The notes under the pieces are model-generated. The model was given only the letters and a program-made list of their open reading frames with translations, made no database searches and had not been told where the DNA came from. This document shows positions 1-45,565 of a stretch of DNA of 46,353 bases, one piece after another. The stretch is taken from NCBI RefSeq assembly GCF_004010195.1, contig NC_057719.1, positions 2,159,267-2,205,619 of the forward strand, in the 5' to 3' direction. The stretch is from Chiloscyllium plagiosum (taxonomy: Eukaryota). Numbering within the stretch: position 1 is the stretch's first letter; every line of letters starts with the position of its first letter. The translations under genes were made by a program, and so were the position numbers.

Positions 1-360
1 GAATTTCTTCCCAGGGTGGTCAGTTTGTTGAATTCTTCACCACAGAGCACTGTTGACACTGGCTCGTTCAGTATATCCAAGGCTGAGAGAGATGGATTTT
101 TAAATCAGGAAGGGAATCCAGGGTTGTGGGGGAAAAGGCAAGAAAGTGAAGCTGAGGATTATTAAATCAGCCATTGAATACTGGAGCAGGCTTGATGGGC
201 TGAATGTCATTGCGAGTGTGTTGCTGGAAAAGCACAGCAGGTCAGGTAGCATCCGAGGAGCAGGAGAATCGACGTTTTAGGCATAAGCCCTTCATCAGGA
301 ATGAGGCTTGTCTTGATGGGCTGAATGGCCGACTTCTACTGCTGTGTATTATCGTGTTCT
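1..360 (+). mobile_element. Decayed CR1-type LINE 3' end
   Basis: Resembles the other CR1 3' ends in the window (FF.QRVV..WN.L coding remnant, then the GATGGGCTGAATGGCC tail). Interrupted by the insertion at 207-311. Confidence 0.6.
207..311 (-). mobile_element. Short PLE-terminus element (family A) with mutated hammerhead core
   Basis: 16-bp direct repeat CTTGATGGGCTGAATG at 191-206 and 312-327. Minus strand reads CTGATGA-AGGGCTTATGCCT-AAAA-CGTC, so GAAA is lost. Confidence 0.8.
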
Positions 361-1097
361 GAGGTATAGTCACTGTTGTAAGCAACATAATCACAACATT
401 GGATTGGATTGGATACTCCTGCTGTTAAGGTTTTACTGATGCCTCATCCCAAAGAAGTATTGTTGCTCTTTATAAGTTAACAGGGGGAATGAAACAATAG
501 AAAATATTCCCAGTTCAGTTTGGGAGCTGTACTGACTGGTTTTTTGAACAATGTGATACTAATGTTTTCAGATTCTTTCAACATGAAGATTCTGATAGAT
601 GCAGTATAGCATGAGCTGTAGCTGATGTAATCTCTTCAATTTGAATTAAATTTTGGAAGGATTGATGGTGTTTTTTACTCAACTCCTTGATTTCGTTTTA
701 GTCCTTATCTTCAATTGTTGTGTAATATGCTACTGTAGCTTGGTTACACTGTTGATACAATCTAGTATATAGAACACAGAAGAGTATAGCACAGGAACAG
801 GCCCTTTGGCCCATCATGTCTGTGCTGGCCATGATGTTATTGTAAACTAATCCTATCAGCCTGCACATGGCCCATATCCCTCTAATCCCTGTCTGTTCCT
901 CTCTCTGTCTAAATGCCTCTTAAAGGTTGCAACAGTATTTGCTTCTACCACTCCCCTGGCAGTGTGTTCCAGGCACCTAACACCTTCTATGTAAAGTACC
1001 CTTTCACTTTCATATTTGACATTTACATCCTGGGGAAGAAAAAGACTCTAACTATCCACCCGATCCATGCCTCTCGTAATTTTATACACTTCTATCA

Positions 1098-1385
1098 GAA
1101 CATAGAACAATGCAGCGCAGAACAGGCTCTTCGGCCAGCAATGTTGTGCCGACCTGTGAACTATTCTCAGCTCGCCCCTCCTACACTATCCCAAAATCAT
1201 CCATGTGCTTATCTAAGGATTGTTTGAATCTCCCTATTGCGACTGAGTTGACCACATTAGCAGGTAGGGCATTCCACGCCCTTACCACTCTCTGCGTAAA
1301 GAACCTGCCTCTGACATCTGTCTTAAATCTATCACCCCTCAATTTGTAGTTCTGCCCTCTAATACAAGCTGACGTTATCATCCAG
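1098..1385 (-). mobile_element. Younger CR1 3'-end fragment nested in the older CR1
   Basis: Peptide RGQNYKLRGDRFKTDVRGRFFTQRVVRAWNALP, close to the copy at 16799-17184. Ends in a TGTTCTATG-type tail. Confidence 0.88.
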
Positions 1386-2115
1386 GTTGCCTCCTCAGCC
1401 TCCAACACTCTAGTGAAAACAATCCAAGTTTGTCTAACCCCTCCTTATAACTAATACACTCCAATCCAGGCAACATCCTGGTAAACTTCTTCTGCACCCT
1501 CTCCAAAGCCTCCACATCCTTCCTGTAGTATGATGATCAGAATTGCACAAGACACTCCAAATGTGGCCTAATCAAAGTCTTCTCCAGCTGCAACATCACT
1601 TTGCCAACTTATATACTCAGCACCCCAGCAGATGAAGGTAAACGTGCCGTATGTCTTTGTTACCACCTTATCCACTTGTGTTGCCACTTTGAGGGATTTA
1701 AGGATTTGCATCCCAAGATCCCACTGAATATCAGTACTCCCAAGAATCCTGCCACTTACTATATCTTTCCCAAAATGAGTCACCTCACACTTGTCCTGAT
1801 TAAGCTTCATTTGCCATTACTCCATCCAGCTTTCCATCTGATCTATATCCTGCTGTATCCTTACCAACTTTCCTCATTACCTACATCTCCTCCAATTTTC
1901 ATGTCGCCTGAAAACATAATAATCAGACTACCTAGACTTTCATACAAATCACTATTTTCATTTTGCATTTTAAAATTTCAAAGATAAAACCCTTCAGGCC
2001 TGAAGTACTCCCAATAATCTGCCGTTTTAATTCCTGCATTCACAATGGTATTTGCCCATGTAAACATGTCACATAGTAATTACAGTCTCCCAGCAGTGGG
2101 GGCATTCCAACATCA

Positions 2116-2475
2116 GACCCCATCAACTACTCCGATCCCTTGGCATCATGGTAGCCCACAAACCCACCAACACACTAAAATAGCAGCTAATGAACTTGAA
2201 AGACCCTATACAGACAATGAGCAAAACTAAGGTCATTTACAAAATACCGTGCAAGGACTGTAACAAACACTACATTGGACAAACAGGCAGAAAGCTAGCC
2301 ACCAGGATACATGAACACCAACTAGCCACAAAAAGACATGACCCTCTCTCACTAGTACCCTCACATACGGATGAGGAAGGACACCACTTCGACTGGGACA
2401 ACACATTCAGCTCAGCGAGCAAACCTACATCCAAAACCTCAACCTGAGCTACAAATCTTCTCAAAACTCGCTAAC
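2116..2475 (+). mobile_element. Penelope-like element fragment (GIY-YIG endonuclease region plus 3' end)
   Basis: ORF 2190-2447 contains VIYKIPCKDCNKHYIGQTGRKLATRIHEH (GIY-YIG). Flanked by TCCAACATCA at 2106-2115 and 2476-2485. Its 3' end matches 17585-17652. Confidence 0.88.
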
Positions 2476-2517
2476 TCCAACATCACTATTCCAAGGTCAC
2501 TTATTTATATATATAAA

Positions 2518-2662
2518 GTTAAAAATCACATAACACCAGGTTATAGTTCAACAGGTTTATTTGGAAGCACTAGCTTTCAAGGTGCTGCCTCTTGATGAAC
2601 TATAACCTGGTGTGAGATTTAACTTCGTCCACCCTTGTCCAACACCGACACCTCCGAATCAC
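2518..2662. mobile_element. Short fold-back element (family C), internally deleted
   Basis: Inverted arms GTTAAAAATCAC..ACACCAGGTTATAG / CTATAACCTGGTGTG, homologous to 11654-11865 and 42826-42996. Confidence 0.7.
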
Positions 2663-6465: not shown

Positions 6466-6783
6466 GTCTAGGAGAAAGTGAGGACTATAGATGCTGGAGA
6501 TGAGAGTCAAAAAGTGTGGTGCTGGAAAAGCACAGTTGGTCAGGCTGCTACCGAGGAGCAGCAGAGTCGACGTTTCCACCATAAGCTCTTCATTGGGAAT
6601 GATCGCCTGATGAAGAGCTTTTGTTTGAAACATTGCTACCGAGGAGCAGGAGAGGCAGTGTTTCAAACAGAAGCTTTTCATCAGGCGGTCATTCCCCATG
6701 AAGAGCTTATGGTGGAAACGTCGACTCTGCTGCTTCTTGGTAGCAGCCTGACCAACTGTGCTTTTCCAGCACCACACCTTTTG
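6466..6783. mobile_element. Palindromic PLE-terminus element (family A) with four degenerate hammerhead-like units
   Basis: About 6507-6636 is nearly the reverse complement of 6655-6783. AACCATTA flanks it at 6458-6465 and 6784-6791. The ORF track gives almost the same peptide on both strands. Confidence 0.88.
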
Positions 6784-7661
6784 AACCATTAACATAGGGC
6801 CACCTTGGTTTTTTAAAACCAGATTTTCCAATAACTAAGGACCATAAATCCCATTTATTAAATCCCCTTGAAAGCTTTGTTTGTCTTTTCTCCAGAGTCA
6901 TTGATTTGTTTGTAAAATGCAGGTGACTCACTGCACATGTTAAGCTGCGGACTTCTTTCTTTGATAAAACTACATGCTTTTCAGTTCTGAAAATGTCCAA
7001 ACTGGTCTGTATCTTCAAATGTTTCACACAATCCTTTAGTGTAAGCATGTATTCCCAACGCTGGTTGTTAGATGAGGAACAATGGAGTGTAAACACTGGC
7101 ATGGACCTATCTGGTGGAGCTGAACAGTCTCTTTCTGTGCTGTAAAGGCTTGGTGATTCCTTGCCACTATGGATATTCCAAAGTGGATATTGCCAATAAT
7201 GTACTTATCTCTAATCACTGTCATGTAGGAAATGTAGCAGCTAATTTGTGGGAACTTGCATTGTGCAATGTAATAATGTCCAAAAGTTTGTGATAATGTT
7301 TGACGGTTAATTATCCACTGAGCGGACTTTCCAGACACATTTTAACTAGTCCAGTGGGGATCTGTAGAGAAGGCAGATCGATGGGGTTAGAATTGATATC
7401 AACTAGGAGAAAGAGACCTCTATCCGCCATGTCAAGGACCTCCAAGCCCTCTGTTTCTTCCTCTCCTGGTGTCCTCACTGATGCTCTCATTTGTTTGGCT
7501 GAACTGGTCCTAACCCTTAACAATTTCTCCTTTGAATCCTCCCACTTCCTCCAGACCAAAGGGGTAGCCATGGGCACCTGCATGGGCCCCAGCTGTGCCT
7601 GTCTCCTTGTCAGTTGTGTGGAACATTCCATCTTCTGTAGTTGAAATAGAATAGAAAGCAC

Positions 7662-8008
7662 ATAGAATCCCTACAGTGTGGAAACAGGCCCTTCGGCCCA
7701 ACAAGTCCACACCGACCCTCCAGAGAGTAATCCACCCAGACTCATTCCCCTACCCTGTTACTTTGCATTTACCCCTAACTAATGCACTTAACCTATACAT
7801 CCCTGAACACTATGGGCAATTTAGCATTGCAAGTTCACCTAACCTGCACATATTTGGCTTGTGGGAGGAAACCGGAGCACCCAGAGGAAACCCACACAGA
7901 CTTGGGGAGAATGTACAAACTCCACACATACAGTCACCTGAGGCTGGAATCAAACCTGGGTCCCTGGTGCTGTGACGCAGTAGTGCCAACCACTGAGCGA
8001 CCGTGCCC
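7662..8008 (-). mobile_element. V-SINE (HE1-like), full length, inserted in the PLE
   Basis: Reverse complement of the same head, V-domain and tail as 3822-4133. Confidence 0.9.
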
Positions 8009-8596
8009 ACATGTTACACCAGCACCATTCTCCACCTTTTCCTCCACTACATTAATGACTGTATCGGTGCCACCTCGTGCTCCCACGAGGAGGTTGAACA
8101 GTTCATCAACTTCACCAACACATTCCACCTCAACCTTAAGTTCACCTGGACACCTCCCTCCCCTTTCTGGACCTCTCCATCTCCATCAATGGTGACCGAT
8201 TCAATACTGACATCTTCTACAATCCACCAACTCCCACAGCTACCCGGACTACACCTCCTCCCACTCTGCCTCCTGTAAAAGTGCTATCCCTTATTCCCAA
8301 TTCCTTCGCCTCCACCGCATCGGCTCCCAGGAGGAGCAGTTCCACCAAAGAACACATCAGATGGCCTCCTTCTTCAAAGAGTGCCATTTCCCCTCTCGCG
8401 TGGTTGATGATGCCATCCAGTGCATCTCATCCATCTCCCACACCTCTGCCCTTGAACCCCACCCTCCAACCGCAACAAGGACAGAACCCCCCTGGTCCTC
8501 ACCTTCCACATGTCATTTACTGTAACTATTGCTCTCGACGCAGTCTCCTCTACATTGGGGAGACAGGACATCTTCTTGAAGATTGTTTCAGAGAAC

Positions 8597-8758
8597 GTTC
8601 TCCCCGTGTCTGCATGGTGAATTGGCCATACTAAATTGCCCGTAGTGTTAGGTAAGGGGTAAATGTAGAGGCATGGGTGGGTTGCGCTTCGGCGGGTCGG
8701 TGTGGACTTGTTGGGCCCAAGGGCCTGTTTCCACGCTGTAATGTAATCTAAAAAAAAA
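8597..8758 (+). mobile_element. 5'-truncated V-SINE inserted in the PLE
   Basis: TTCTCCCCGTGTCTGC start, then the SINE 3' half and a TAATCT(A)n tail. Confidence 0.85.
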
Positions 8759-9546
8759 CATCTCCGGGACACCCACACCCTCCAAATCCCACTGCCCCGT
8801 GGCCGAACACTTCAACTTTCCCCCCTCGCTCCTCCATCTCCATACCCTCAGCACCCAACACCTGGACGAAGAATGCCTCTGCCTTGGGACCCTCCAACCC
8901 CAGGGCATCAATGTAGATTTCACCAGATTCCTCACCTCACCTCCCCCATCTTTTCCCAGATCCAACCTTCCAACCTGTCCATCTTCCTTCCCACCTATCT
9001 ACTTCACCTTCCTCTCCGACCTATCACCATTACCCCCACCTCCATCTACCTATCGCACTCTCAGCTCTCTCCCCCAACCCCAGCTCACAGCCTCATTCCT
9101 AATGAAGACCTTTAGCTGGCTACGTCGACTCTCCTGCTCCTCGGATGCTGCCTGACCTCCTGTGCTTTCCAACACCGCACTCTCGACTTAGAATAGATGT
9201 CAGCCTGATCTAACTGAGGAACTGACTGGCCTCCTCCTGCTCCCATAGAGGAGGTGGGGACATATGGATGCTGCTGTTGGGAGTCATTACCCTCTGTAGG
9301 GGTAAGAACATTCTCAAACAGGCAGATGTCCCTATGCCATTGTTGGTGACAGATGATGTCAGGAATAGTTTAACAATGTGAATGTAGGTGAGCACACAGT
9401 TAACAGTGTTCACATTAAATGCAATTGGCTTGAGTGTTAATACCCACTTGTCCCTTGGCCATATTTATGGGATATAACTGCACTGTCCATTCTACATTTA
9501 AGATAAACTGAGTGGATTTGGTTTTCTCCTTTTCCTCTTTGTGTAG

Positions 9547-9801
9547 ACGAAGGGCAACTGATTGAGCGAGCTGCTCACACAGGAATGATCAACCCAGGGG
9601 CCCAGTGGATGACCTTGCAGCACCACGGAGCCGTGGCTCACTTTGAATACAGCATCCGTGTGAAGTGTGAGGAATATTACTACGGCACTGCCTGCAACAA
9701 ACTCTGCCGGCCCCGTGACGATGTGTTTGGTCACTTTGTTTGTGACCAGAATGGGAACAAACTGTGTATGGAAGGCTGGATGGGGAGCGAATGTACTAAA
9801 G
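9547..9801 (+). CDS. Jagged/Serrate-family Notch ligand, internal coding exon (end of C2/MNNL domain plus DSL domain; equivalent to JAG1 exon 4)
   Basis: Pyrimidine tract 9521-9540, acceptor AG at 9545-9546, donor GTAAGG at 9802. Length is 255 bp, phase 1/1. Translates [84 protein letters not shown], with the six-Cys DSL pattern and the Jagged-type GMINP motif. JAG1 versus JAG2 orthology cannot be settled by eye, so no symbol is given. Confidence 0.96.
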
Positions 9802-9994
9802 GTAAGGAGTCTGCTGTTATACAAACTGGACTCTCAACTCGCATTGATGGGATCCATCCATTTACAATTCAGGGCCTAGGAAAGGATACAGGGCTGGTAC
9901 CAGGGGAGGGAGATGGTGAAGTAAACTCGCTGCAAAACCTAGAGTTCTTCTTAAAGTCAGACAAGCTTAAAAGGGAGGAGCAAGTTACTGTAGG

Positions 9995-10552
9995 TGCTGG
10001 AACCTGTACTAAAAACAGCAAATGCTGGAGAACACAGCGAGTCAGATGGCATGCATGGAGAGAGAGCAAGCTAATGGTTTGAATCTGGAAGACTCTTCAT
10101 CAAAGCTTATTCATTTAGCTTTGCACGGTGGCTCAGTGGTTAGCATTCATTTAGCTTTGCACGGTGGCTCAGTGGTTAGCACAGCTGCCTCACAGCGCTA
10201 GGGACCCGGGTTCAATTCCCGCCTCAGGTGACTGACTTTGTGGAGTTTGCACATTCTCCCCGTGTCTGCGTGGGTTTCCTCCGGGTGCTCCGGTTTCCTC
10301 CCACAGTCCAAAGATGTGCAGATTAGGGTGAATTGGCCATACTAAATTGCCCATAGTGTAGGTGCATTAGTCAGGGGTAAATGTAGGGGAATGCGTCTGG
10401 GTGGGTTGTTCTTCGGCGGGTCGGTGTGGACTTGTTGGGCTGAAGGGCCTGTTTCCACACTGTAGGGAATTTTAAAAAAAAAGACTCATCTAGACTCAAA
10501 ACATGAGCTTGCTCTCTCTCCGTAGATGCTGTCTGACCCACTGTGATCTCCA
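9995..10552. mobile_element. Fold-back PLE-terminus element (family B) split by a V-SINE
   Basis: Left arm about 10025-10107 and right arm 10118-10123 plus 10481-10552 are reverse-complementary (GGAGAGAGAGCAAGCT / AGCTTGCTCTCTCTCC). Degenerate TGATGAAGAGTC..GACTC.AAA hammerhead units are present. Confidence 0.72.
10123..10480 (+). mobile_element. V-SINE (HE1-like) with duplicated 5' junction
   Basis: Full head, V-domain and tail; 36-bp tandem duplication at 10109-10144 and 10145-10180. Confidence 0.9.
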
Positions 10553-11653
10553 AGTTTATGGGGAGGTCAAGCAGAGGTATTCAAAATGAGGAATTTTATT
10601 TGGGGTGAGGAAGGAGGAACTCTGTGTTCGGGCAGAAGAGTTGATCATCAGAATGTAGCTTTAAGACAATTGATGAAAGAACAAAGGTATGATTAGAATG
10701 TTTTGACTACAGCTTGCATTTATGTGGTTTTCTTTAAGATAATAAAATACTCCAAAGTGCTTCACGTGAGTGTTAGCAAATAATGCAATGAGCCACATGA
10801 AGAGCTATTAATGCAGCTTGTCAAAGTCTAGATCGTAGTAATAGATTTTAAAGCACATCTTTAGGCAGAAGGAAAGTTAGGTTTGAGTTTGGGAGTTAGG
10901 AACCTGAAATGGTAGTAATCAGAGTCATGGATGCCAAAATTGGAATAATGAAGTTAGTTCCATCATTTACAGGGTGGAGGAGTTCCTGTCTGATGTGGAA
11001 TGCACTGCTAACAGGAATGCAAGCAGATTCAGTAGTAACTTGCAGAAAGGGTAAATACTTGAAAAGGAAAACATTAGCCATACTTTGGGGAAGAGCAGGA
11101 GAGACCAGAGCAAACCAGCAATTTCCCAAACCCATTAGCAGCATGATAGACTAAGTGGCCTGCGTTTGTGCTGCAAGTCTTCATAGCTTGATTATATTGA
11201 TGGGTTCCATTAAAATGAATATTGCATATCTTGGTCACAGGCTGTTACATTACTTAAGCTTCCTAATGGCAACTCATCTTCAACACTGTAGGGAGCCAGC
11301 ACCAATGTGGAACAGAACCAACATTTTATAATTTCAAATCTGATCTCTGGCCAACGTTGTGTTTGCTAGTCACTGGTGTCATGAGGGTTGCACTTGGCAT
11401 CGAAGGTGATTTTTGGTTGTAACTCAAGCTGTTTTTCATAAAAATATTGGAATGCGCTGGACCAACCAACATTGAGCTCCCCCCAGTTCACCTCTCTTCC
11501 AGTAGTCTGGTGTAGTATTGGATCATGGATTTTAAATAAAATATTGGCAAAGTATCACAAAAATATAGTTAACAAAACTGAAGCTTATAGAATATAGTCA
11601 TTGGGCAAAAATTTTGTTTAAGAACAGAAAATAGTGAGTCGTGGTAAACTGTA

Positions 11654-11865
11654 GTTAAAAATCACACAACACCAGGTTATAGTCCAGCAGGTTTATTTGT
11701 AAGCACTAGCTTTCGGAGCGCTGCTCCTTCATCAGGGAGCTAGTGACCTGACAAAGGAGCAGCGCTCCAAAAGCTAGTGCTTACAAATACACCTGCTGGA
11801 CTATAACCTGATGTTGTGTGATTTTTTAACTTTATCCACGCCAGCCCAACACCGGCCCCTCCACA
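11654..11865. mobile_element. Palindromic PLE-terminus element (family C)
   Basis: Arms 11654-11736 and 11747-11830 are near-perfect inverted repeats. TSD TCGTGGTAAA at 11639-11648 and 11866-11875. Confidence 0.88.
11704..11738 (-). ncRNA. Minimal type I hammerhead ribozyme motif (intact core)
   Basis: Minus strand CTGATGA-A-GGAGC-AGC-GCTCC-GAAA-GCTA-GTG: conserved boxes, 5-bp stem II, palindromic AGCT in place of helix III, CUA triplet. Activity is not shown. Confidence 0.68.
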
Positions 11866-12589: not shown

Positions 12590-14330
12590 AGAACCCTGGT
12601 ATGACACTGTACAGAAGATGCCAATCAAGTCTGCACTGACAAAAACTCAATTGTCACTAATCTCATTTTCCCACACTAGGCCCATAACCTTGAATGTTAA
12701 GAAATTTCAAGTGCCCATCCAAGTACTCTTTAAAGGTTTCCCACCTCACCTGTTCTCCCAGACAGTGCATTCTATTCTGGATTGGAATTGTTATCTCTGT
12801 TTTCGGCTCACAGATGCTCCCAGACCAGCTGAGTTTCCCCAGCAATTTTGTTTTTGTTTCAGATCTCCAGTTCGTTGTTTTATTTTAGTACATTCCAGAT
12901 TCCTACCAGCCTCTGGGTGGTATGTTTTCCTCCTCAAGTCCCCTTTAACCCTCCTGCCTTGCATCTCAAAATTGTGCTCCCTTCTTAATAACCTTTCAGC
13001 CAGGAGGGATAGCTGCCTTCATTCACCCTATTCATGTACCTTGCAATCTTATCCATCTCTATCAGGACCCTCTCAGCCTTCTCTGCTCCAAAGGAAACAA
13101 CCCAAGCTGATCTAGTCTTTCTTCATAGCCAGACTGCTCCATCCCAGACACCATCCTGGTGAATCTCTTCTTCACGCCCTCCTGTGCAATCACGTCCTTC
13201 CTATAGTGTGGTGCACACAGTACTGAGCCATGTCCTTACCAAAGTTCTGTACAGCTCCAACAGAACGTCCTTGCTGTTATAATGTGTACCTCAACTGATG
13301 AAGACAAGAGTCCCATATGCCTTCTTTATGACCCTATTAGCCTGCTCTACAAGTACCCCAAGATCCCTGTGTTCCTCTGAGCTTCCTGGTGTCCTGCATT
13401 CATTGAGTACTCCCTTGTCTAGTTCCTTCTTCCAAACTGCACCACTTTCCAGGGTTAAACTCCATCTGCCACTGATCTTCCCATTTCACCAATCCATTTA
13501 TATCCTAACACACTCAACCACAAGCTTACTTATCACACACCTCCACCAAACCCCACCCGCCAACATTCTTATCTCCATCATTTATGACTATTGACTATTG
13601 CAAACAAGACACTGATCCCTGTGGTACATCACTGCACACTGGGTTCCAGTCACACTAACAGCCCTCTTATCGTCATTCTCTGTCTCCTGTTACTGTCCAT
13701 TTTGGATCCAACTTGCCAAGTTATCCTGGTCTAAAGCTTTTACCTTCTCCATCAGTTTCCCACGTGAGGCCTTGTGAAAGGCCTTTGCTGAAATCCATAT
13801 AAACCACATCAGCTGCACTACACCCGTCTATTTACTCGGTAACCTGCTCGGAAAATTAAACTAAATTCGCCAGCCATGACCTTCCCTTGACAAAGCCATT
13901 CTAACTACCCCTGATCAAGTCATGCCCCTCTAAATGGAGATTAACTCTGTCCTTCGCTATTTTCTCCAATAGTTTCCCTACCACTGATGTGAGACTCCCT
14001 GGTCTGTAATCCCCTGGACTACCTCTACCACCCTTCTTGTAAAGTGGAATCCCATTAGTTGTCTTCCTGTCCTCTGGCCAGAGAGGAATCAGAGTGAGAG
14101 CTGCTATAATTTCCTTTCCCATCTCCCACAGCAACGTGAGATACAACTCATCTGGACCTGGAGATGGTCGACTTTTAAACCCACCAAAACCTCCAACATC
14201 ACCTCCTCACTCCCTCCGTCGAACTGCGCAAGAATGTCACAGTACCTCCTCCTGAATTCTGTACCTACATTCTCCTTCTCCAAAGCTGTTTTGGCAAGGG
14301 ATGCTGAGAAATATGATTTGCTTTTAGACA
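12590..14330 (-). mobile_element. Decayed CR1 LINE
   Basis: Minus-strand peptide WPEDRKTTNGIPLYKKGGRGSPGDYRPGSLTSVVGKLLEKI (ORF 13901-14146). Contains a short family B piece near 12795-12885. Confidence 0.85.
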
Positions 14331-14835: not shown

Positions 14836-14896
14836 CTATTTGTAAACAAGGCTGCCATTCGATCCATGGGGGATGTAAAGTTCCTGGAGAATGCAC
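14836..14896 (+). CDS. Jagged-family coding exon (N-terminal part of EGF1; equivalent to JAG1 exon 5)
   Basis: Acceptor TTTTGCAG ends at 14835 and donor GTAAGT starts at 14897; length 61 bp. Spliced to the previous exon it reads in frame [20 protein letters not shown](T). Compare JAG1 [20 protein letters not shown] and JAG2 [20 protein letters not shown]. Too short for the ORF track. Confidence 0.95.
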
Positions 14897-16798
14897 GTAA
14901 GTGAGCACCATTCTGGGCCAACAATTGTTTTCAACCAGCTGTTACATAACCACTGCTGTTTGGATGTTTGGTGATTGCACTATTTTAGTAGCAGTGGTTC
15001 AGTTTGAGAAAGATCCCTGAACAGTGTCTGCTTGTACCAAAAAACAACTCCGTGTTTAAATTTTTTCTTTTCCCTTTTCGGGGTGGGAATAAAAGCAAAA
15101 AGCATTTGATCTGGTCACCATGGCCTGTGATTAGTGGTGCCTGAGAAAGGAGTCTGGTTTTAGTCCACAATACTCTTGTGATTTGTTGTGTAGAGGGATG
15201 TGTGAGGACTCAGCAAGGCTACTTTGGCAATGCTATCTGTTTGTAGTTGTAAGCTCTGCTTTTAGAATTGCAACAGTTTGGTACCCATGATTCCAGCCTC
15301 TATTTTAAAACACAGCTGATAAAGGTTATGCTAAGTTTCTGCTGACCAGTCCCAATTCTGCCTGTGTGATTTACAATTAAAGAGCTGGCCATTGCTTTGA
15401 CCCCAGCACCATTTACATCACCTTTCGAGAAATATAAACCATTGTACAGCTTTACAAGAGCTGATGACCAGTAAGTAATATCGGAGAAACTGTGCCCTCC
15501 CTCTGGTAGGTTTTAGTGTCTATACGTTCAAACCCATGACAAGCTTTGTGGGTTTCCCTGTAACAGGCCAAACAGGGGAAAGCTGGAAAGATGCACTGAT
15601 CTCTCTTGCTCCGGGCTCTGTACAGCGGTTGTAAAATTGCACGTAGACACGCCAGGGTGTTTTGGCATTGATTGCCTGTCATTGAGTGCACAGGACTTGG
15701 AAAACCTCACATGCACGTGTCCTCCGTAACTCCAAATAACATGTGACTCATGGGTCAACGATCACGCTTGATGGTATCATAACAGTGAGTCCTGATGAGC
15801 TGGGGCTAAATATATTCTGGCTTATTAAATATAGCCTTCAGTAAATGGACAGGGTTGAAGCTGTGAATCATGCAGCCAGTAAACCATTTGAGACCGAAGA
15901 AGATGTTATTGGCAGACGTGACTGTGCGGCGGAGAGCAGCAAAGGGATGGCTTGGACTGACATGATGCCCACGTGCACTTTTCTTGTCATGATATTTCTT
16001 CCCCTCTGCCCATGGCCTAGTGCCATTCTTACACTTGCTTCTATGGAAAGGATCTTCCACGAGCTGTACGGTCATGGATTTTGCAGACTTGAGCTTAGAA
16101 TCCTTGGCTGATCCTACCCATTAACTCGCTGCAGTACTAAGAAAGTACCTCACTGTTGGCAGTATTCTCTTTGGAATGATTTGTCAAACTGAGGCCCTGG
16201 TCCACTCCCTCAGGAGGATGTAATCCAGAGGCCTAGGCTCATGCTGACATGATTTCAAATCCAAATGTGGTAACTCATAGTGGACCCATGCACTCACGCC
16301 CACTTCACCCTCAACAACAAAACCTACAGACAAACCAACGGAACATCCATGGGATCTCCAATATCAGGGTTCCTGGCAGGGACAGTAATGCAGAGACTCG
16401 AACAAACAGCTCTGTCCAAAATTTGGGTCCGCTACGTGGATGTCATCACTAAACGAAATAAATTAGAGGAAACCTTCAAGATCATCAATAATTCCCTTAC
16501 TGTCATAAAGTTCATATAGAGAAGGAAAACCACAACAAACGGCCATTCCTAGATGTCACAGTAGAGCAAACAGCCAATGGAGAACTTACAACCAGCGTTA
16601 ATAGGAAAGTAACACAAATGGACTAAATATTGAACGACAGAAGCAATCATCCCAACATCTATAAACAAAGCTGCATTGAAACATTATTTCAATGAGCCAC
16701 TGCACACTGCAGCGCAGAGGAAAACTCACCTATACTGTGTATTCAAAAAGAACAGACAGCCAATGAACACAGACTGCCGATTTCTCAGCAACAAACCC

Positions 16799-17184: not shown

Positions 17185-17382
17185 AACCCGAACAAGCAGA
17201 CAATACACACCCAGAAACCCTAGCCACTCTCTCTTACATCAAAGACATCTCTGAAATGGCTGCCAGACTACTCAGACACCTTGGCATCATGGTAGCCCAC
17301 CAACATACTAAAATAGCAGCTAATGAACTTGAAAGACCCTATATAGACAATAATTAAAACAAATTTCTGAGAAAAAAAACAG

Positions 17383-29227: not shown

Positions 29228-29317
29228 GAGGAGGTGAGGACTGCAGATGCTGGAGGTCAGAGTTGAAAAATGCATCGCTGGAAAAGCACAGCAGGTCAGC
29301 CACCAAGGAGCCAACCG
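29228..29317 (-). mobile_element. Truncated family A PLE-terminus element (no hammerhead)
   Basis: GTGAGGACTGCAGATGCTGG end; 14-bp TSD TACCAACCAATCAG at 29214-29227 and 29318-29331. Confidence 0.85.
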
Positions 29318-30429
29318 TACCAACCAATCAGCACCTTTTTCCTCCCATGGTTTCAATTGTGAAAGTTTGAAATTTGGCATTCTTGTGTTTGTCCTGATGA
29401 GTACAGGACCAAAAGCCTCCGGAATGTTACTCTTCAGCAACAATCACAGTATATTTCTTGAGTTTTATCAGCCAGAGTTTAAAGAGATGATCCTGATGCA
29501 TTCATCAGGAAAAATACTTGCGCACACCAAAAATTCTAAAGTGGAATTACTTAGCAGAGATGTTCAAAATGTTCAAAATCTCCAAGCTCAGTTATTCACC
29601 TATATTTGTTCTTTCACATGCTATTTGGTGGGTTTCCAGCGATGTCTGCCCTTATTTGTTTCATAAGATGTTGAACTTTTTCACTCTTGAATGCTGTGAA
29701 TTAATTTGTATTCAAGTGTTTTCTTTAAGAATTCTTGCTGCTTTCCTGTTTTGCGTCGAATCTCTCTTCCTTCCTGGTGTGTGGGCACTTTTCATTTTTC
29801 TCTCTCGTTTTCCAGCAGTTATTTTTAGTCGATCATGGTCCTGGAATTTAATGCTATTGTTCTCTTCTTGCACAACCCCATCCTGTTCAATATTGTTATA
29901 AACAGTTAAAAGCTTTTCTTTTCCATTTAGCTGCTACATATTTTGAAAAAATCTTTAATTTTGTTTGTGTCTCTTCTCACTCTGAGGCTGGCAGCTGGTG
30001 AAATGTTTTTATTTTATTCACATTCCTTTTTAAGGCAGGAAACAACTAAAAAACACATGCAGACCGAGGAAGGAACAGGACGTGATTCAGATCTAACTCT
30101 TTGAACTCTGGTTGCAGGAGACAAAACTGGCCGGGTGAGGGGAAAGGATAGCTGGAGTTAGGTTTGGGAGGGTTTATCTGGTGCTCCATCTGTGGTTCAG
30201 TGAGTAACACACTCTAACCTCTAGTCGGAAGGTTGTGGGTCCCCTTTCCAGAGACTGGGTTCAGTAATCCAGACTGTCGTTTTCAGCACATTTCTGTTTG
30301 GGTGAGAAGTTAGGTGATGGTTCCCTGGTGTCTTGCTCAATATTTATCGGCCAGCTAACATCCTATAAAATGAGCAACTTACTGGCCATTGTCCCAAGTC
30401 TGTCCTCCTTGTTTGCAATTCACTTTCCC

Positions 30430-30785
30430 AGAATCAGAGTCATAGAGTAACACAGAATGGAACCAGGACCAAGCTGGTCCATGCTTACCATGATGCCCAC
30501 TCAACTAGTTCCAATTGCCTGCATTTGGTCCATATCCCTGTAAACCCTTCTCATCCATGTACCTCTCCAAATGTTTTTTTTCAAATGTCGCTATTGTGAT
30601 GTCTCCACCTCCTGATGCTGCCTGGTGTGCTGTGTTCCTCCAGCCTCCTGCCTGTCAACTCAACCACTTTCTCTGGCAGCCCGTTCCATATACGCACCAC
30701 TCTCTGCATGAAGAGGTTGCCACTCAGGTCTTCCTTAAATCTTTTCCCTCTCACCTTAAACCTGTGCGCACAGTTTTCAGTTCCC
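30430..30785 (-). mobile_element. CR1 3' end with a small PLE-terminus insert (about 30600-30657)
   Basis: Similar to 17670-17940. The insert matches 45482-45532. Confidence 0.75.
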
Positions 30786-31292: not shown

Positions 31293-31390
31293 ATCTGGAT
31301 TAGAGTGGTGCTGGAAAAGCACAGCAGACCAGGCAGCATCCGAGGAACAGGAAAATTGACGTTTCAGGCAGTAGCCCTTCATCAGGAATC
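31293..31390 (-). mobile_element. Family A PLE-terminus element with intact hammerhead core
   Basis: 15-bp TSD TGTCACCTGAACAGA at 31278-31292 and 31391-31405. Minus strand CTGATGA-AGGGCTACTGCCT-GAAA-CGTC. Confidence 0.88.
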
Positions 31391-31941: not shown

Positions 31942-31950
31942 AACCTGACA

Positions 31951-32940: not shown

Positions 32941-34967
32941 AACCTGACCATGGAGGGAAACCATTTCTGGCAATGCTGCATCGTCTTGGTATATTTCTAA
33001 AGCAGAAGAATTCTGGAAATATCCTTTGCTTTCCATGGTGTTTGAGCGGAAAACAAGTTGGAATGTAACTCAACATGTCGACATTCACACCGCTGACTTC
33101 CGGGTGGCCCTAGCCAGCTGGATATTTAAATAAAAACATGAATGACCTGTGAATCACTGGTCGGTTTGGGGTTAGCATTTGGTGTGGAGAGACTGACAAA
33201 AGAGGAGAATTCCACTTCAGAAAGAGAAAGTGCTTTTGTTATCTGGGTAAGAATGGGGGAGGGTGGAAGAATGAATGTGAAAAGGTTCTGGTATGTGGTG
33301 GCTTGAATGTATAAAGACTTTGATCACCTGATACCATGGCTTCTTGACATTGAACTGGTTCCAGCTTTAGTTTTCCAGAGAGATGTGATGAGTGCAAACA
33401 GGAAGGTCTGTAACAATATACCGAGTCATTAAATATTGAAGAATGAATGAAAAACGTCACAGGCTCCACACACCGGCTCAATTAGCCAAATGGAGTGTAG
33501 CACGATGCTGCAGGAAAATGTGCCAATGTTTTCTATGCCTTCTTCAGCTCACTGGGGTAAATGAACTCTTTCCATTTGGTTGCATTTCCTTGCATGAGTA
33601 CCTTTGTTGCAACCACTTGATGTTCACATCCTAACTGCTGAAGATAGCTTTTCCCCTGCTCCTGTGCTTTTCAAACACAGTTTGGTTTCATTATCTAGTC
33701 TGTTTAGAATCCTAAAAGAAACCCAGGAATATGGACAGCAATGAGCCGTTTCACTTAAACCAGAGGACCCAACCTGTGCTTAAATGAAATTAAATTCACA
33801 ACTGTTTGCAAAGTGTATTTCAATGAGAAAGAGTTCCATCTATGGGACAGGCAAAGCTGATGGTAATGATTCATATAGAAGCAAATTAGATTTCTTTCAG
33901 GGAATCGATTTGGATATGATATCAATAATTTGAGACTTAACATGTGGTAACAGACTCTGGGAGAGCAAGTGCTTTTTGAATAAACCAGGAAGTGCTGCAG
34001 GAGTTCAGCTGGTCTGGCAGCATCTGTAAAGAGAGAATGAGAGGTGACTTTGAACCTTTGGTTTCCAAAGCACAGCTCCACTGGGGACTGACTTGCCTCA
34101 CACCTGGGTCTGTTACAGACTCGCCAAAGATTGATCATCGTGGTTAGTTTAAAATGCTGCTGTCGTGTCATGTAATGCCAGAATGGTAGATGGCAAAGTT
34201 TGATCTTTTTTTATAAACAAATTTACAAATGATTGTTGGGATATTTGATCTTTCAAGCCCACTCCACTGTTCACTAAGATTGTGATTTGATTGTGGTTTC
34301 AACCCCATTTTCTTAGCGATTGATTCATTCTCTTTTCATTCGCCTGTTAATCATGAAACTATCTCCCTCTGCCTTAAAAATATTTGCACCATGTTCTGGG
34401 GATTCGTGAGACTCGTGACCATCATTTAAAAAAACCAGTCCTACAGCAGTCTGCCCACCTGCTTTAACCAGCACTTCAGGTCTCCTTGTCGTCTCAAGGT
34501 TCCTCCATCCAATCTGATTCAACCAAAAGAAAGATTTGCATTTCTCTCACACCTTTCACAAATTCTGAATGTCCCCATGTTGTTGTTGTTGTTGTAGTGG
34601 AGGGAATCATCTATTTCTTATTCGTCAATCTGGAAACGATGGAGTCCGTTACCTCGTGAACTTTGTTTTCAAATACTGTTCCTTTTAATATGATTTTCAA
34701 AAGGTTATTTTTAGCAGAAGAAGTATCAATTTTGCATCTTCATAGGGAATTGAGAGGAGCTGTTTGTCCAGTTAATTTTCCAAGTTTTCTCCCTTTCTCT
34801 CCCCCTGTTGTTGCTGTTCAGGTTGACTCTGTACCGAATTGATTGATCTTTTGTTGTCAGATGTACTGAGATACAGTGAGAAGTGTTGTTTTGCATGCTA
34901 TACGGGCAGGTCACTCCCAATCCTTCTGGGGTCAGCCAATTGAATCCTTCAGTCTCTGTTGAATTAG

Positions 34968-35148
34968 CGTCTAGATTAGAGTGATTTATCTCTCCACGCT
35001 TCAGGCACTCTGCCTCTATTCCTGATGAAGGGCTTTTGCCCGAAACGTCGATTTTCCTGCTCCTCGGATGCTGCCTGACCTGCTGTGCTTTTCCAGCACC
35101 ATTCTAATGTAGAATCTGGTCTCCAGCATCTGCAGTCATTGTTTTTAC
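34968..35148 (+). mobile_element. Family A PLE-terminus element, sense orientation
   Basis: 14-bp TSD CTCTGTTGAATTAG at 34954-34967 and 35149-35162. A very short inverted 5' piece (CTAGATTAGAGTG) precedes the main arm. Confidence 0.9.
35018..35053 (+). ncRNA. Minimal type I hammerhead ribozyme motif, fully intact core, sense to Jagged
   Basis: CTGATGA (35022-35028), A, stem II GGGC-TTTT-GCCC, GAAA (35042-35045), CGTC. ACGT palindrome is retained and the predicted cut is after C35049. Stem I is weak (TC/GA). Confidence 0.72.
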
Positions 35149-35268: not shown

Positions 35269-35390
35269 TGTGGGCAGAAGTGAGGACTGCAGATGCTGGA
35301 AACCAGAGTTTAGAAAAGAGTGGTGCTGGAAAAGCACAGCAGGTCAGGCAGCATCCGAGGAGCAGGAAAATTGACGTTTCGGGCAAAAGC
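35269..35390 (-). mobile_element. Family A PLE-terminus element truncated inside hammerhead stem II
   Basis: 11-bp TSD ATTTACTTATC at 35258-35268 and 35391-35401. Confidence 0.88.
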
Positions 35391-36616: not shown

Positions 36617-36739
36617 GAGAAAGTGAGGGCTGCAGATGCTGGAGATCAGGGCTGAAAATGTGTTGCTGGAAAAGCGCAGCAGGTCAGGCAGCATCCAAGG
36701 AGCAGGAGAATCGACGTTTCGGGCATAAGCCTTTCTTCA
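36617..36739 (-). mobile_element. Family A PLE-terminus element with hammerhead core
   Basis: 17-bp TSD GGTGATGAGCCCCTGAG at 36600-36616 and 36740-36756. Minus strand CTGAAGA-AAGGCTTATGCCC-GAAA-CGTC. Confidence 0.9.
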
Positions 36740-37734: not shown

Positions 37735-38950
37735 CACTAACAAGTATGATCACTCACCTAGGAATCTCCTTGTCACTGGTCAGGGGTTCCACGGATCCTT
37801 GTGGCTGATGAGCCCAATCCTACAGGCACATCTCCCATCCCACTCGGCAGGTTTTTCCGGGAGATGGGATTGAGATTGTGGGCATTCCTTTCTGCAATTC
37901 CTTTTCCATACTTGCTCTTGCTGATGGATGTTCTCCCTTCATTCAGGAGCTACCTTCCAGTCGGTTTCTTCTGAATGATTGTGTCGAGCGCGTTGATACC
38001 GACGTTGCATTTCTTGAGGGAAAACTTCAAGCAATCTTTGAAAGCTTCCTTTGTCGTCCTCCAGTTCTCTTTTTTTATATTTGTTAATGGGATGTGGGTT
38101 TTGCTGACTAAACCATCTCGAGCGGGCATTTAAGAGTCAATCACTTTGCTGTGGGAATGGAGAAGGCCAGCAGATTCCTACCTTAAAGGACATTAGTGAA
38201 ACGTATGAGTTTTTCCTGACAGTCGGCATTGCTTTCATGGTTTTCATTAGACCTTTAAATTCCAGGTTTGTACTGGATTCAAATTTCACCATATGCCATG
38301 GTGGGATTTGAACCAGGGTCCGCAGGATATTGCCTGGGTCTCTGGATTAATAGTCTAGTGATAGTACCGTTATACCCAATGCCTGGAGTGCTTTTCTTGA
38401 GCTGACTCAAGATGATTTGCTTTTTTAAGTTGTAACTCTGGCATCCCAAATGCGTGGCTGGCCCAGTGGAGTTGGTTTAGGGTGGCATCGCTGCTGGTGC
38501 TGTGGGCTGCTTCAAGGACACTGATGTTAGGATGCCTGTCTTTCCAGCTGATCTGGAGAATCCGTCTCAAACAGTGTCAGTTGTAGCTCTCTGTGGACTT
38601 GAGGTGACGATGAATCTGATGAAGAGTCATCCAGACTCGAAATGTTAGCTTGGTGTCTGTCCATGGATGCTGCCTGACCCCACTGTGATCTTCAACCTTT
38701 GTTGTTTTCAGTACAGATTCCAGCATCTGCAGTAACTTGCTGCTCCAAGACAGCTTCCTCCCCCTTTCCACTGCCGTCCAGTTGAGTATTCTGAATGATG
38801 GTGAGTGCCAGATCCATCGGCATGATTCAGACTTCCACACGGGAAATTGACTCAGCTCAGTCATGCACCTGCTGATTGATGTTGGAAGTGTAAGACATCC
38901 TGCTCGGGGAAGACTTTGGATTCCTCTTCCCTCTTACTGAAGCATCCAGT
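37735..38950 (-). mobile_element. Decayed RTE-clade LINE relic with nested insertions
   Basis: Minus-strand RRILQISWKDRHPNISVLE...QLHWASH..GMPE is typical of the RTE ORF C-terminus. Confidence 0.6.
38613..38742 (+). mobile_element. Family B PLE-terminus element with hammerhead core
   Basis: CTGATGA(38616)-A-GAGTC-ATCCA-GACTC-GAAA-TGTT, followed by the GATGCTGCCTGACC...TTCCAGCATCTGCAGT tail. Confidence 0.78.
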
Positions 38951-42825: not shown

Positions 42826-42996
42826 GTCAGAAGTCACACGGCACCAGGTTGTCGTCCAACAAGTTTATTTGAAATGGCAAGCTTTCGAAGCAGAGCTCCA
42901 AAACATTGTGATTTCAAAAAAAAACCTGTTGAACTATAACCTGGTGTCACGACTTCTGACTTTGTCCAGCCCAGTCCAACACCGGCACCTCCACAC
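42826..42996. mobile_element. Fold-back element (family C variant), centre collapsed
   Basis: Arms GTCAGAAGTC...CACCAGGTT / AACCTGGTGTCACGACTTCTGAC; 12-bp TSD CTTTGTCACTGT at 42816-42827 and 42997-43008. Confidence 0.8.
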
Positions 42997-43079: not shown

Positions 43080-43312
43080 TGAAACCTAGAAACTGCTAGA
43101 GAAACTCGACAGGTCTGACCGCAGTTGCGGGGAGAGAGAAACTGTTAACATTTCGAGTCCAGAGACTCTGCTTTGAAACTCCACAGTTCTGAAAAAGTGA
43201 ATTTGGACCCAAAACGTTAATTCTGTTTCTGTTGCCACAGATGTTGCCAGACCTGCTGAGTTTCGCCAGCACTTTGTTTTAATTTCAGACCTCTAGCATC
43301 TGCAGGATTTTG
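43080..43312. mobile_element. Old fold-back family B-like element
   Basis: GAAACTCGACAGGTCTG...TTAACATTTCGAGTCCA is inverted relative to TGGACCCAAAACGTTAA...CAGACCTGCTGAGTTTC. Confidence 0.65.
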
Positions 43313-44247
43313 TTTTGAGTTCGTTGTTTATGTGCTGTAAATATCCTTACTTTAGCCTTCCTGCCAGCAGTATGACAAAACAGCTGTAACTCGATGCTTT
43401 TACCTTTTAAACTACAGAACCAAACATTGGTAATATATTAATTATTTTCCTTGCCCTCTGAATAGTTGGAACATTGGTTGGAAAGATATTAATGTAGAAT
43501 TTGCAGCAGAGAACCAGCTCAGTTATCAGTGTTTCTGGTCCAGACAAACCGTTTCCACCTTCCTTGATTTCCTTTTCTCCCTCATTCTCAGCCAGCTTTC
43601 CTTTAAATACCGATTTGCCCATGTGGTAGCTTTTGTTCAGGCAGCGTATTTGGGAGTTTTGGCAGAATTGCGAGTGTTTTTGGGTGAAATGTGAATAGAA
43701 CACCTTCAGCCTGAGCCCGGATTTCCAGTAGGAATCCTTCAGCTGGAATCTGCACATCTCCGTGACGTGGAGCTACACAATGACTCTGATCCCTGCGAGG
43801 CATCCAAAAATAACTTTTCCCCGGAATAACGGTGGGACAGTTGTGGTTTCAATCATTGCCAGCAATAAAAATAGCTGCCTGCTGGCCTGTGACAATGGAT
43901 GAGTAACTTTGCACCAGATAGCCCCTGCTTCTCTCCCCACCTCTGGCAAGCATCCAGTCTGTAAACCGGAGGGATGGTGTGTTGTTGCAGTAAGGCACAC
44001 GGTCAGGTCGTGCACGAGGAAGCCATGTGGTCCATTGTGCCTGTACTGGCTCTTTGAAAGAGTAATCCAATTATTCCCCTTTCCTTAATCCTTTTTCCAG
44101 AATTTATCCAATTTTCTTCAATGCTGTTGAACCTTTCACCGTGTGCATCCCAGATCATCAATAAAGCAGCAATTCACAAATTCTGTCTCTTCTGGTCACC
44201 AACGCTTCCAACTCATAACTGTCTGACATTAGCCTCGTGGTCTTATA

Positions 44248-44431
44248 CAGGTCGTTCTGCTATAACGTGACAGTTGTGTCCCTCTGCAACCTCATGCTAT
44301 AGAAATTCTCGCTATGGAAAACCACTGTAACCGTTCAGTGAGTTTGCGTTATTCAAACAGCGTTCACAATTTGTCAATCACTTTATAGCCAATTTGCGTT
44401 GATGAAATGTGCATTATACCAGAACGACCTG
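44248..44431. mobile_element. 184-bp MITE, Tc1/mariner (pogo/Tigger-like)
   Basis: TIRs CAGGTCGTTCTG(C/G)TATAA(C/T)G at both ends; TA duplication at 44246-44247 and 44432-44433; no ORF. Confidence 0.85.
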
Positions 44432-44454
44432 TAGCTAGACTGTTAATCCGGAGA

Positions 44455-44590
44455 TAAAAAGGGTAAAAACAATGACTGCAGATGCTGGAAACCAGATTCT
44501 GGATCAGTGGTGCTGGAAGAGCACAGCAATTCAGGCAGCATCCGAGGACAGGCAAAATCGACGTTTCGGGCAAAAGCCCTTCATCAGGAT
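44455..44590 (-). mobile_element. Family A PLE-terminus element with intact hammerhead core
   Basis: 14-bp TSD TGTTAATCCGGAGA at 44441-44454 and 44591-44604. Minus strand CTGATGA-AGGGCTTTTGCCC-GAAA-CGTC. Confidence 0.9.
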
Positions 44591-44774
44591 TGTTAATCCG
44601 GAGAGGCAGTCAATGTTCTGAGGTCCTGGGTTTGAATCCCACCACAGAATAGTTTTTTTAAAATATTTGTTCACAGATGTAGACATCACTGGCTAGGCCA
44701 ACATTTTTTTTACCATTCGCTAGTTACCCAAGCGGCAGTGGGTCTGTAGTCAATGTCAGCCAGACCAGCAAAGG

Positions 44775-45565
44775 ATAGACAAGCAGGAGGCTGGAAGAAC
44801 ACAGCAAGCCAGGCAGCATCAAAAGGGGGAGAAGATAACGTTTCAGGTGTAACCCTTCTTCAGGACTGGGGGTGGATGTAAAGGGAGCTGCAGATAAAGG
44901 GAGTGGGGGNNNNNNNNNNNGGGAGTGGGGGTGAGGGAGGGTTTTGGGTAGGGAGAGGGGTAGAGTGATGAGGTGGGGATAGGAACACAAGTAGAGGGTA
45001 CAGCATGGTTGCTCGATGAGAGGAATGAATTGGCCTCCTCCATTGCCACGACATTCACCACCCGTTTTAATTCCTCTTCCCACTCCTTTTCCGACAAGAC
45101 CATCCTCTGCCTCCTCCATTGCCACAGCGAATCAGACTGCAGATTGGAGGAACAGCTCATCTTCCGCCCGGGCAGCCTACAGCCTGGAGGACTCAACTCT
45201 CCAATTTCAAATAACCTCCTTTCCCATCCCCCGACTCCCTTCCCAGTCCCTCCCTTGCAGTCCTCTGACCGACCCTTCATTCCAGCTGCCATCCGGAGTC
45301 ATTCCTCCCATCGGCCAACCAGTTCGTACCCTCCAGCTGTATTCACATATCCCCCACCTCACTACCCCGACCCTCTCCCCACCCATTACCCTTTCCTCCC
45401 CTTCCCCTCCTTTATCTGCAGCTCCCCCTTACACCCACCCCCAGTCCTGAAGAAGAGTTACACTTGAAACATTGACTCCTGCACCTCCTGATGCTGCCTG
45501 GCTTGCTGTGTTCTCCCAGCCTTCTGCTTGTCTTCCTTGGATTCCAGCATCTGTGTTTGTTTTTG
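44775..45565. mobile_element. PLE 3' fragment with inverted terminal arm
   Basis: 44777-44905 is the reverse complement of about 45405-45533. The + strand carries RLEEQ.LIFR.GSLQP.GLN (PLE C-terminus). Hammerhead-like units at 44835-44865 (-) and 45444-45476 (+, decayed). Confidence 0.82.
44910..44920. other. Assembly gap (11 N)
   Basis: Run of n within a G-rich inverted repeat. Confidence 0.99.

Follow-up and report, generated by a model that had tools for sequence, protein, structure and literature searches.

Short inserts carrying minimal hammerhead ribozymes were analyzed in a 46,353-nt stretch of the genome of the shark Chiloscyllium plagiosum (NCBI RefSeq assembly GCF_004010195.1, contig NC_057719.1, positions 2,159,267 to 2,205,619 of the forward strand), here called the window, and in a sample of the same genome. 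These inserts are very probably products of the terminus of Penelope-like elements (PLEs) and not a separate lineage. The account that we favor as probable is that most of them are run-off ('strong-stop') complementary DNAs (cDNAs) of the 5′ end of PLE RNA. It combines features read directly from the copies, namely their parentage, two 3′ ends, target-site duplications (TSDs), the pairing of long with short arms and a sharp 5′ boundary (the wall), with a start of the RNA at this wall, which we infer.

Element positions are numbered from the first C of the CUGANGA box, taken as 0; the cleavage site of family A lies after +27. Families are named by their stems: GGGC/GCCC (A), GGAGC/GCTCC (B), GAGTC/GACTC and look-alikes (C), GGGT/ACCC (D) and GTTGCC/GGTGAC (E). 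These letters differ from those of an earlier reading of the window from its sequence alone (the sequence-only reading). The genome sample comprised 140 stretches of 10 kb, taken at round coordinates on the 32 largest contigs (1,354,304 non-N bases), and terminus copies (arms) were found by BLAST with seeds taken from the window. A young family A set of 82 arms was picked via a motif downstream of the ribozyme, so that the start position is unbiased; its members were not drawn at random but are the first matches along contig 1. TSDs were scored as their length minus 3 per mismatch.

Parentage of the inserts

Two stretches of the window, 7402..9187 and 45720..46353, translate to reverse transcriptase (RT), a cysteine-rich linker and GIY-YIG-like sequence; the linker region gave 81,149 candidates in a first-look genome search. 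The first is a 5′-truncated RT-endonuclease remnant on the plus strand, interrupted by pieces of a short interspersed element (SINE) and closed by a decayed family A end (14-15-bp TSD, 2 mismatches). We take this remnant, and the parent clade of family A, to be of the Neptune/Nematis type. In the translations, a zinc-finger-like (Cys-rich) linker is present between RT and endonuclease (EN), which is a feature of Neptune and Nematis (Craig et al. 2021, PMC8557442). The second stretch is a piece of PLE open reading frame (ORF) forming an inverted pair (185 bp, 96% identity), probably the junction of a larger twin-primed insertion that extends past the end of the window.

Of 16 loci chosen for their long frames, 15 have family A directly after the ORF, and many of them also have an inverted arm on the upstream side. 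In locus L301, a 736-amino-acid frame matches RVT_1 at E 1.7e-6, short of the curated cut-off, and contains a segment that looks GIY-YIG-like by eye. The arrangement that defines an EN-positive PLE, RT and GIY-YIG in one ORF with the terminus behind it, is therefore present, as are 5′ truncation, an inverted 5′ copy and a one-ended tail. Stop-free frames of 390-730 codons in all three frames at L311:621-2850 and L313:1-1355 are probably low-complexity repeats. The long tail of family A resembles a branch point, pyrimidine tract and AG before the body (L124, L205, L169), like the 3′ end of an intron; PLEs are known to carry an intron at the tail/body boundary (Craig et al. 2021, PMC8557442).

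A second lineage is represented on the plus strand by a GIY-YIG fragment with a family E tail at 2116..2475 (PF01541 E 1.8e-4, just under the cut-off; 10-bp TSD) and by a 5′-truncated RT remnant at 16279..17649 (RVT_1 E 9.7e-4; 8-bp TSD), which is split by a piece of a long interspersed element (LINE), ends in family E with a hammerhead at 17537, and is presumably Poseidon-like. The sequence-only reading had seen the same terminus on both coding remnants; both are hammerhead-ended, but their termini differ, being of family A on 7402..9187 and of family E on 16279..17649. It had also counted family E among the tiny inserts, which does not hold for the window, where the single hammerhead of this family sits on the coding remnant. 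A short tandem repeat with a CATCAC-containing unit occupies 17387-17466 in the 3′ untranslated region of this second lineage, upstream of a TATAAAT about 48 nt before the hammerhead.

The sample coverage along a near-full element is 2-9 in the 5′ part of the ORF and 10-28 toward the 3′ end; from 28 immediately before the ribozyme it jumps to 146-218 across it and over the terminus. Thus, the assignment of the inserts to a Penelope terminus with a minimal type I hammerhead is borne out by the same terminus on coding copies, and terminus-only copies do greatly outnumber coding ones. Among nine family A clusters, eight, including the youngest (1.3% divergence), list a copy that reaches at least 180 nt upstream. 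The short inserts (stubs) thus belong to the same families as the coding elements and represent their shortest members.

The 5′ wall and its predicted promoter

Among the 82 young family A arms, 53 start at -6..+9, a single one at -14..-7, 13 further upstream and 15 at +10..+45. The family B set contains 41 arms, of which 12 are long (assigned by eye, three with indels); 26 of the 29 others start at -8 or later, and three start at -13..-10, two of them overlapping their own TSD. Starts at the cleavage site (+28..30) were found in 2 of the 82 young arms. A bump at +28..31 among BLAST starts of the mixed sample (16/290) was not upheld in this young set and was dropped as a candidate.

Sequences upstream of the wall were compared in long copies. 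In family A, TTATCT is located at -34..-36 in 45 of 56 copies, and an A is found at -4 in 95%, within the context pyrimidine-A-TTC. In family B, TATAA occurs at -36..-40 in 16 of 55 upstream regions, with A at -8 in 14 of 17 TATAA-bearing copies; long copies show TATAAAT at about -38..-40 and a CCA with its A at -8. Each wall thus lies on an initiator-like A, 30-31 nt behind a TATA box or a box in TATA position, and the walls of the two families are about 4 nt apart, as are their initiator-like As. In core promoters, the TATA box precedes the initiator A by about 30 nt. By these rules, both walls would coincide with a predicted transcription start. The transcription of Penelope itself starts inside the pseudo-long terminal repeat (pseudo-LTR) (PMC2377424). 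For Penelope of Drosophila virilis, the distance from this start down to the hammerhead is about 120 nt, made up of 46 nt and an intron of 75 nt (PMC4209133, PMC2377424).

The same wall could be the 5′ edge of the ribozyme, if RT primed at the 3′ repeat of a full-length RNA and then usually stalled or was released as it came out of the folded, protein-bound hammerhead. The family A wall coincides with the 5′ strand of helix I, the long copies form an ordinary 5′-truncation ladder, and the ribozyme of the anole element is protein-assisted (PMC11167929). We nevertheless consider stalling unlikely, in view of the hardness of the wall (1/82 starts in the next 8 nt upstream), the family B wall at about -8 although its helix I covers only -3..-1, the promoter-like boxes at the right distance in both families, and unremarkable monomer folding energies (z -0.6 to -2.2).

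Several observations weigh against a transcription start at the wall, or against its generality. The family B wall rests on 29 arms, and in family A the box deviates from a canonical TATA. Family E copies mostly extend far upstream. None of the 16 long-frame loci contained a complete partial-tandem source (pseudo-LTR, ORF, pseudo-LTR), although junctions from tail to body and short tandems do occur. In RNA reads from one informative run, a polyA single-cell run of which about 2% was read and which is not a 5′-end method, no pile of molecule starts or ends was observed; 78 reads have varied loose ends exactly at -4, which independently echoes the wall itself, and further loose ends lie at +125/126, as is expected from embedded copies. 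Finally, a G, as a capped RNA would be expected to leave, precedes -4 in 57 of 100 listed copies versus 26% expected; this excess, a possible cap signature, is confounded by partner arms and TSD overlap, as 11 of 20 Gs in 30 loci viewed belong to inverted joins and another 5 fall within the TSD. Whole-genome exact matches include 17,743 copies with a non-native base directly before -4.

The 3′ ends and head-to-head pairs

The young family A arms end at +87 (short) or +124..126 (long), and the inserts are flanked by TSDs of 8-18 bp. These two ends correspond to the pair of RT start sites on either side of the tail in the anole element (PMC11167929). In the sample, 166 of 290 family A arms form 83 head-to-head pairs, of which 51 have a TSD score of at least 8. 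These include 60 long+short, 1 long+long and 3 short+short pairs, as well as 19 with a broken arm that were left out of the test; long+short pairs thus make up 60 of 64 classifiable ones (P 7e-14 against 50%).

A fold-back of the long arm was considered as the origin of the pairs and rejected, since the short arm reaches further 5′ in 36 of the 60 long+short pairs, the long arm in 14, and 10 are ties (ends are approximate). Two primed strands joined by short homology fit the pairs best; a cDNA folded back from the long arm could not give this arm geometry. Two junction types each recur four times among the 83 pairs, one of them with the long and short arms swapped, which argues for their independent origin. 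In pairs from loci L011-L150, the TSD on the side of the long tail frequently has G or AG as its final bases, the same as the last tail bases; this match suggests that primer and template pair over 1-3 bases at the outer start site.

Proposed mechanism

The favored strong-stop account may be described as follows. PLE transcription would start at the wall, from a promoter in the terminal repeat (TATA or TATA-position box plus initiator). The element's own RT-endonuclease would use the start sites in their 5′ copy, which lie roughly 90 and 130 bases from the RNA 5′ end, and RT would run off this end just before the hammerhead, yielding a cDNA of 90-130 nt. Short homology would join most run-off cDNAs, singly or paired, to the target or to another cDNA, and a minority would jump to the 3′ repeat, continue into the ORF and regenerate the pseudo-LTR. 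Head-to-head pairs would result from priming by both cut strands, each at a different start site. L124, L169 and L205 show such template jumps, as the 5′ end of one copy is fused there to body sequence that follows the tail in a different copy.

Reverse transcription of the anole element begins at two internal sites, 111-118 nt into the ORF (Frangieh et al. 2024, PMC11167929); the protein depends on RNA sequence located past these sites, both strands are primed, and ribozyme cleavage is dispensable. Given this requirement, the PLE transcript would offer such sequence at its own 5′ repeat. A retrovirus-like two-step replication might follow, in which the RNA begins with the hammerhead, the strong-stop cDNA has to transfer to the 3′ repeat before the ORF can be copied, and this genome retains roughly a million transfers that failed, giving the densest hammerhead landscape on record that we found; we hold this reading tentatively, with slightly more doubt than belief.

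The stubs would then be a clue to how PLEs rebuild their ends, and an open step of PLE replication becomes testable. Hundreds of thousands of young fixed-end stubs yield predictions at single-base resolution: the RNA should begin at -4 for family A and at -8 for family B, and the priming of two strands should pair a long with a short arm. In annotation, about one million inserts of 80-450 bp would be misfiled as SINEs, miniature inverted-repeat transposable elements (MITEs) or microRNA hairpins.

Abundance in the genome

The sample contains 463 terminus matches, one per 2.9 kb, in agreement with the roughly one per 3 kb estimated from the window. This density is genome-wide, and the window, at about twice the median, lies inside the sampled range. 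A special tie to the host Jagged gene was rejected: the window has 7.1 arms per 10 kb versus a median of 3, 16 of the 140 random stretches have 7 or more, and the seeds came from the window itself. A strict minimal-hammerhead descriptor found 119 motifs in the 1,354,304 sampled bases versus 0-5 in five Markov controls. Extrapolated to 3.56 Gb, and provided that small scaffolds do not differ, these counts correspond to some 1.2 million arms, with intact cores in about 300,000. Exact matches across the whole genome are of a compatible order, at 21,376 for the motif of one young family A subfamily and 27,316 for a family B motif. In axolotl, up to 120,000 hammerheads were reported (Cervera and De la Pena 2020, PMC7229834).

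Such numbers, together with unit-like lengths and TSDs, would also suit a self-propagating non-autonomous class, whose short masters or hairpin pairs are transcribed and re-inserted by the PLE protein; the sequence-only reading had described the termini as a non-autonomous, SINE/MITE-like class. A few junctions do recur four times among the 83 pairs, and Li et al. argue for non-autonomous PLE derivatives (bioRxiv 10.64898/2026.07.22.740005). However, subfamily markers are common to short and long copies, where SINEs would have their own lineage of short source genes. MITEs would have a fixed master, terminal inverted repeats and a fixed short TSD, whereas here the junctions are mostly unique, the TSD lengths vary around 13-16 bp, and recurring junctions have swapped arms and hence arose independently. 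Moreover, neither the promoter-like box upstream nor the body that follows the tail is part of the stubs, and tandem arrays are absent. We therefore regard self-propagation as quite improbable; of the earlier description, the very abundant terminus-only copies stand, and a self-propagating lineage is not supported. In a weak non-autonomous form, the template could be any RNA from the terminal-repeat promoter, including ORF-less ones copied in trans.

The ribozyme core

The 119 motifs in the sample display the features of minimal type I hammerheads, which are the catalytic boxes, helix II, palindromic 15.2/16.2 positions and a short helix I. One spare base followed by G (G10.1), a feature outside the descriptor, is present in 114 motifs, and 15.2-16.2 are paired in 81. 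Pairs 1-3 of helix I, which are also not part of the descriptor, are formed in 102, 105 and 58 of the 119 motifs compared with 78, 67 and 44 after shuffling (0/1000 shuffles each; the shuffle ignores kinship), and pair 4 is not significant (51/1000 shuffles of the 119 motifs). Helix I reads TTC/GAA or GAT in family A, CAC/GTG in B, and GCA/TGC, TCA/TGA or CCA/TGG in E. Among the majority sequences of six family A subfamilies, 16 of 83 positions vary and none of these is a fixed core position. The covariation around invariant catalytic boxes that had been noticed in the window is thus upheld, as pairs change between families and fixed core positions do not. Because helix I, helix II and the palindrome covary around this invariant core, the comparison indicates that the hammerhead fold is kept in the source lineages.

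Selection on the inserted copies was also considered. The core mismatch is 2.1% versus 4.3% elsewhere outside CpG (P 4e-4); this deficit was not taken as selection after insertion, because arms were chosen by their match to the 5′ box, and the value for the other positions is raised by hidden variation among the sources. The ribozyme appears to be a passenger in the inserted copies, and its cleavage site does not set their ends.

A ribozyme kept in the source lineages would be expected if the inserts were retrozyme monomers, that is, hammerhead-cleaved, possibly circular RNAs that are reverse-transcribed and inserted, and dispersed monomers were reported in one chondrichthyan (Li, Clavereau and Pollet, bioRxiv 10.64898/2026.07.22.740005). 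Yet the copies extend upstream past the cleavage site and show no circular permutation at it, with 2 of 82 starting at +28..30, and the RNA reads of the single polyA run (about 2% read) contain no pile of ends at this site. Head-to-tail neighbors are at chance level, with 19 within 600 bp versus about 18 expected by density among 290 arms; the inserts are therefore not retrozyme arrays as defined by Li et al. Both hallmarks of non-LTR retrozymes, a head-to-tail tandem and a unit bounded by cleavage sites, are lacking in these copies. We find this origin highly improbable, and for family A it is largely refuted.

Inserts and other features of the window

The at least 15 insertions first recognized in the window proved to be an underestimate: BLAST returned 34 rows, representing about 33 arms and, by eye, about 27 insertions. 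TSDs had been claimed for 13 of them, and direct repeats flank all 13 measured inserts, with scores of 16, 8, 10, 9, 11, 8, 14, 15, 15, 11, 18, 12 and 14; in 150 random intervals, a score of at least 8 was reached in 8 and of at least 10 in 0. The strict descriptor matched 12 times versus a mean of 0.16 in 50 shuffles, one match (22756) looking like chance. The inserts had been called hammerhead-bearing, and the core is indeed present above chance, but both catalytic boxes are kept in only 11 of the 34 rows. An Rfam scan of the window gave 20 matches, none to hammerhead families and none at the gathering score; its microRNA matches are hairpin pairs of the inserts.

Family A is represented by single copies and pairs. 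Single stubs on the minus strand are found at 207..311 (short tail, G12 of the GAAA box decayed, 16-bp TSD), 31293..31390 (from -4, one extra G before the start, 15-bp TSD), 36617..36735 (long tail, 17-21-bp TSD) and 44455..44590 (intact core, long tail, 14-bp TSD); a plus-strand copy at 34972..35148 reaches to about -38 and has an intact core, a long tail and a 14-18-bp TSD. Three minus-strand inserts lack CUGANGA because their starts lie downstream of the box: tail-only stubs without hammerhead at 23762..23844 (11-13-bp TSD) and 29228..29317 (14-bp TSD), and a stub from +10 at 35269..35390 (11-bp TSD). Head-to-head pairs are located at 6466..6783 (long and short tail, 8-bp TSD), 21204..21660 (arms to about -65 and -170, 12-15-bp TSD) and 22155..22384 (long arm from -4, 14-bp TSD). 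Nested within the first of these is a second hairpin (6600-6692), which includes a separate, decayed hammerhead at 6607 and suggests that this insertion involved more than one join; the pair scores as mir-577 in Rfam, below threshold.

Family B includes a decayed arm with an adjoining tail piece at 2517..2655 (TSD not found), a pair at 11649..11865 with an intact core in the left arm (10-bp TSD) and a pair at 42828..42996 with both arms lacking CUGANGA (12-bp TSD). Family C comprises a single stub with a decayed core at 9970..10102 (minus strand; flank repeat of only 7 bp), an arm without CUGANGA at 10481..10553 (plus strand; TSD not found) and a single copy with both boxes at 38612..38746 (plus strand; TSD not found), as well as C-like old pieces: a tail piece at 12809..12870 (plus strand), an arm at 22000..22135 (minus strand; TSD not found), a short piece at 33990..34027 (minus strand) and a copy at 43085..43316 that is probably a pair (right arm 43190-43316). 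Family D is present as a tail-only piece at 30603..30656 (plus strand) and as a pair at 44771..45553 with PLE 3′ body between the arms and both cores intact (TSD not found). A lone CUGAUGA-bearing stub of a further family lies at 29391..29454 on the plus strand (GAAA box decayed, 11-bp flank repeat); no relative of it was found in the 1.35-Mb sample.

The host was correctly recognized as a Notch-ligand gene. A plus-strand exon at 9547..9801 encodes the end of the MNNL/C2 region and the DSL domain and is Jagged-1-like (PF01414 E 1.2e-20; Jagged-1 E 4.4e-40), and another at 14836..14896 encodes the start of the first EGF repeat (translation only). No further EGF-pattern exon was found past 14896 in the window, and the rest of it is for this reason only inferred to be intronic.

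Other repeats are also present. An inverted repeat of 154-169 bp with 89% identity (1962-2115 / 3137-3305) encloses 1 kb with the GIY-YIG fragment and the family B copy. A repeat family of 300-340 bp with at least nine copies (68-87% identity; 3822-4126, 7647-8006, 8616-8758, 10159-10482, 25496-25835, 31667-32268, 32734-32941 and 39650-39946 among them) is tRNA-SINE-like by eye and presumably resembles the shark HE1 SINE. LINE fragments at 1097-1876, 16799-17179, 17699-18616, 25990-28875 and 40214-41066, which we take to be of CR1/L2 type, have a common short tandem-repeat 3′ tail; the longest (about 2.9 kb) has endonuclease and RT remains.

Comparison with known systems

Already known are the link between ribozymes and PLEs, abundant single motifs, the inverted layout with a one-sided tail, the use of two RT start sites with priming on either strand, and retrozymes of PLE origin that occur as monomers. 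The metazoan PLE minimal hammerheads (Cervera and De la Pena 2014, PMC4209133) likewise have no helix III, palindromic 15.2/16.2 positions, a spare base before G10.1 and a short helix I, and they occur as many families per genome, mostly as single motifs ascribed to truncated PLEs, with some close opposite-strand pairs. They differ in number, about 4,000 motifs in coelacanth and 9,000 in Xenopus versus the approximately 300,000 extrapolated here (the descriptors differ), and the excerpted text of that paper makes no mention of sharks, TSDs or a fixed 5′ start.

The insertion units of EN-positive PLEs (Craig et al. 2021, PMC8557442; Arkhipova et al. 2013, PMC3846280) contain an inverted 5′-truncated copy and a one-sided tail of 30-40 bp. 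The head-to-head order, the tail on one end, TSDs, palindromic junctions and solo pseudo-LTRs are shared with the inserts described here, which, in contrast, mostly consist of the terminus only. For the palindromes, PMC3846280 invokes self-priming on an antisense template, whereas the arm geometry observed here favors two independent primings. The Poseidon element of Anolis carolinensis studied in vitro (PMC11167929) is alike in its two internal RT start sites, which bound the tail about 110-130 nt behind the hammerhead, in the cutting and extension of both strands, and in its independence from ribozyme cleavage; cDNA end positions are not addressed in the excerpts of that study, and family A is, unlike it, assumed to be of the Neptune/Nematis type. 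Non-LTR retrozymes (PMC7229834; bioRxiv 10.64898/2026.07.22.740005) are also non-coding, with a type I hammerhead, a PLE-terminus origin and dispersed monomers, but they are defined by head-to-tail tandems of at least two ribozyme units, which here are not above chance.

A search of the literature, with most subscription journals outside its reach, found no description of a fixed 5′ start at a predicted promoter, of a strong-stop model for PLEs, or of such an abundance in a shark. The families A-E may already be catalogued in Dfam or Repbase. Retroviral minus-strand strong-stop DNA is primed near the 5′ end of the RNA, runs off this end and undergoes the first strand transfer via the terminal repeat. 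The analogy is functional only, as priming here would be by nicked target DNA and the short products are integrated. In summary, the stubs are a real, variant product of a known system, for which the spacing of the predicted promoter was tested here in two families.

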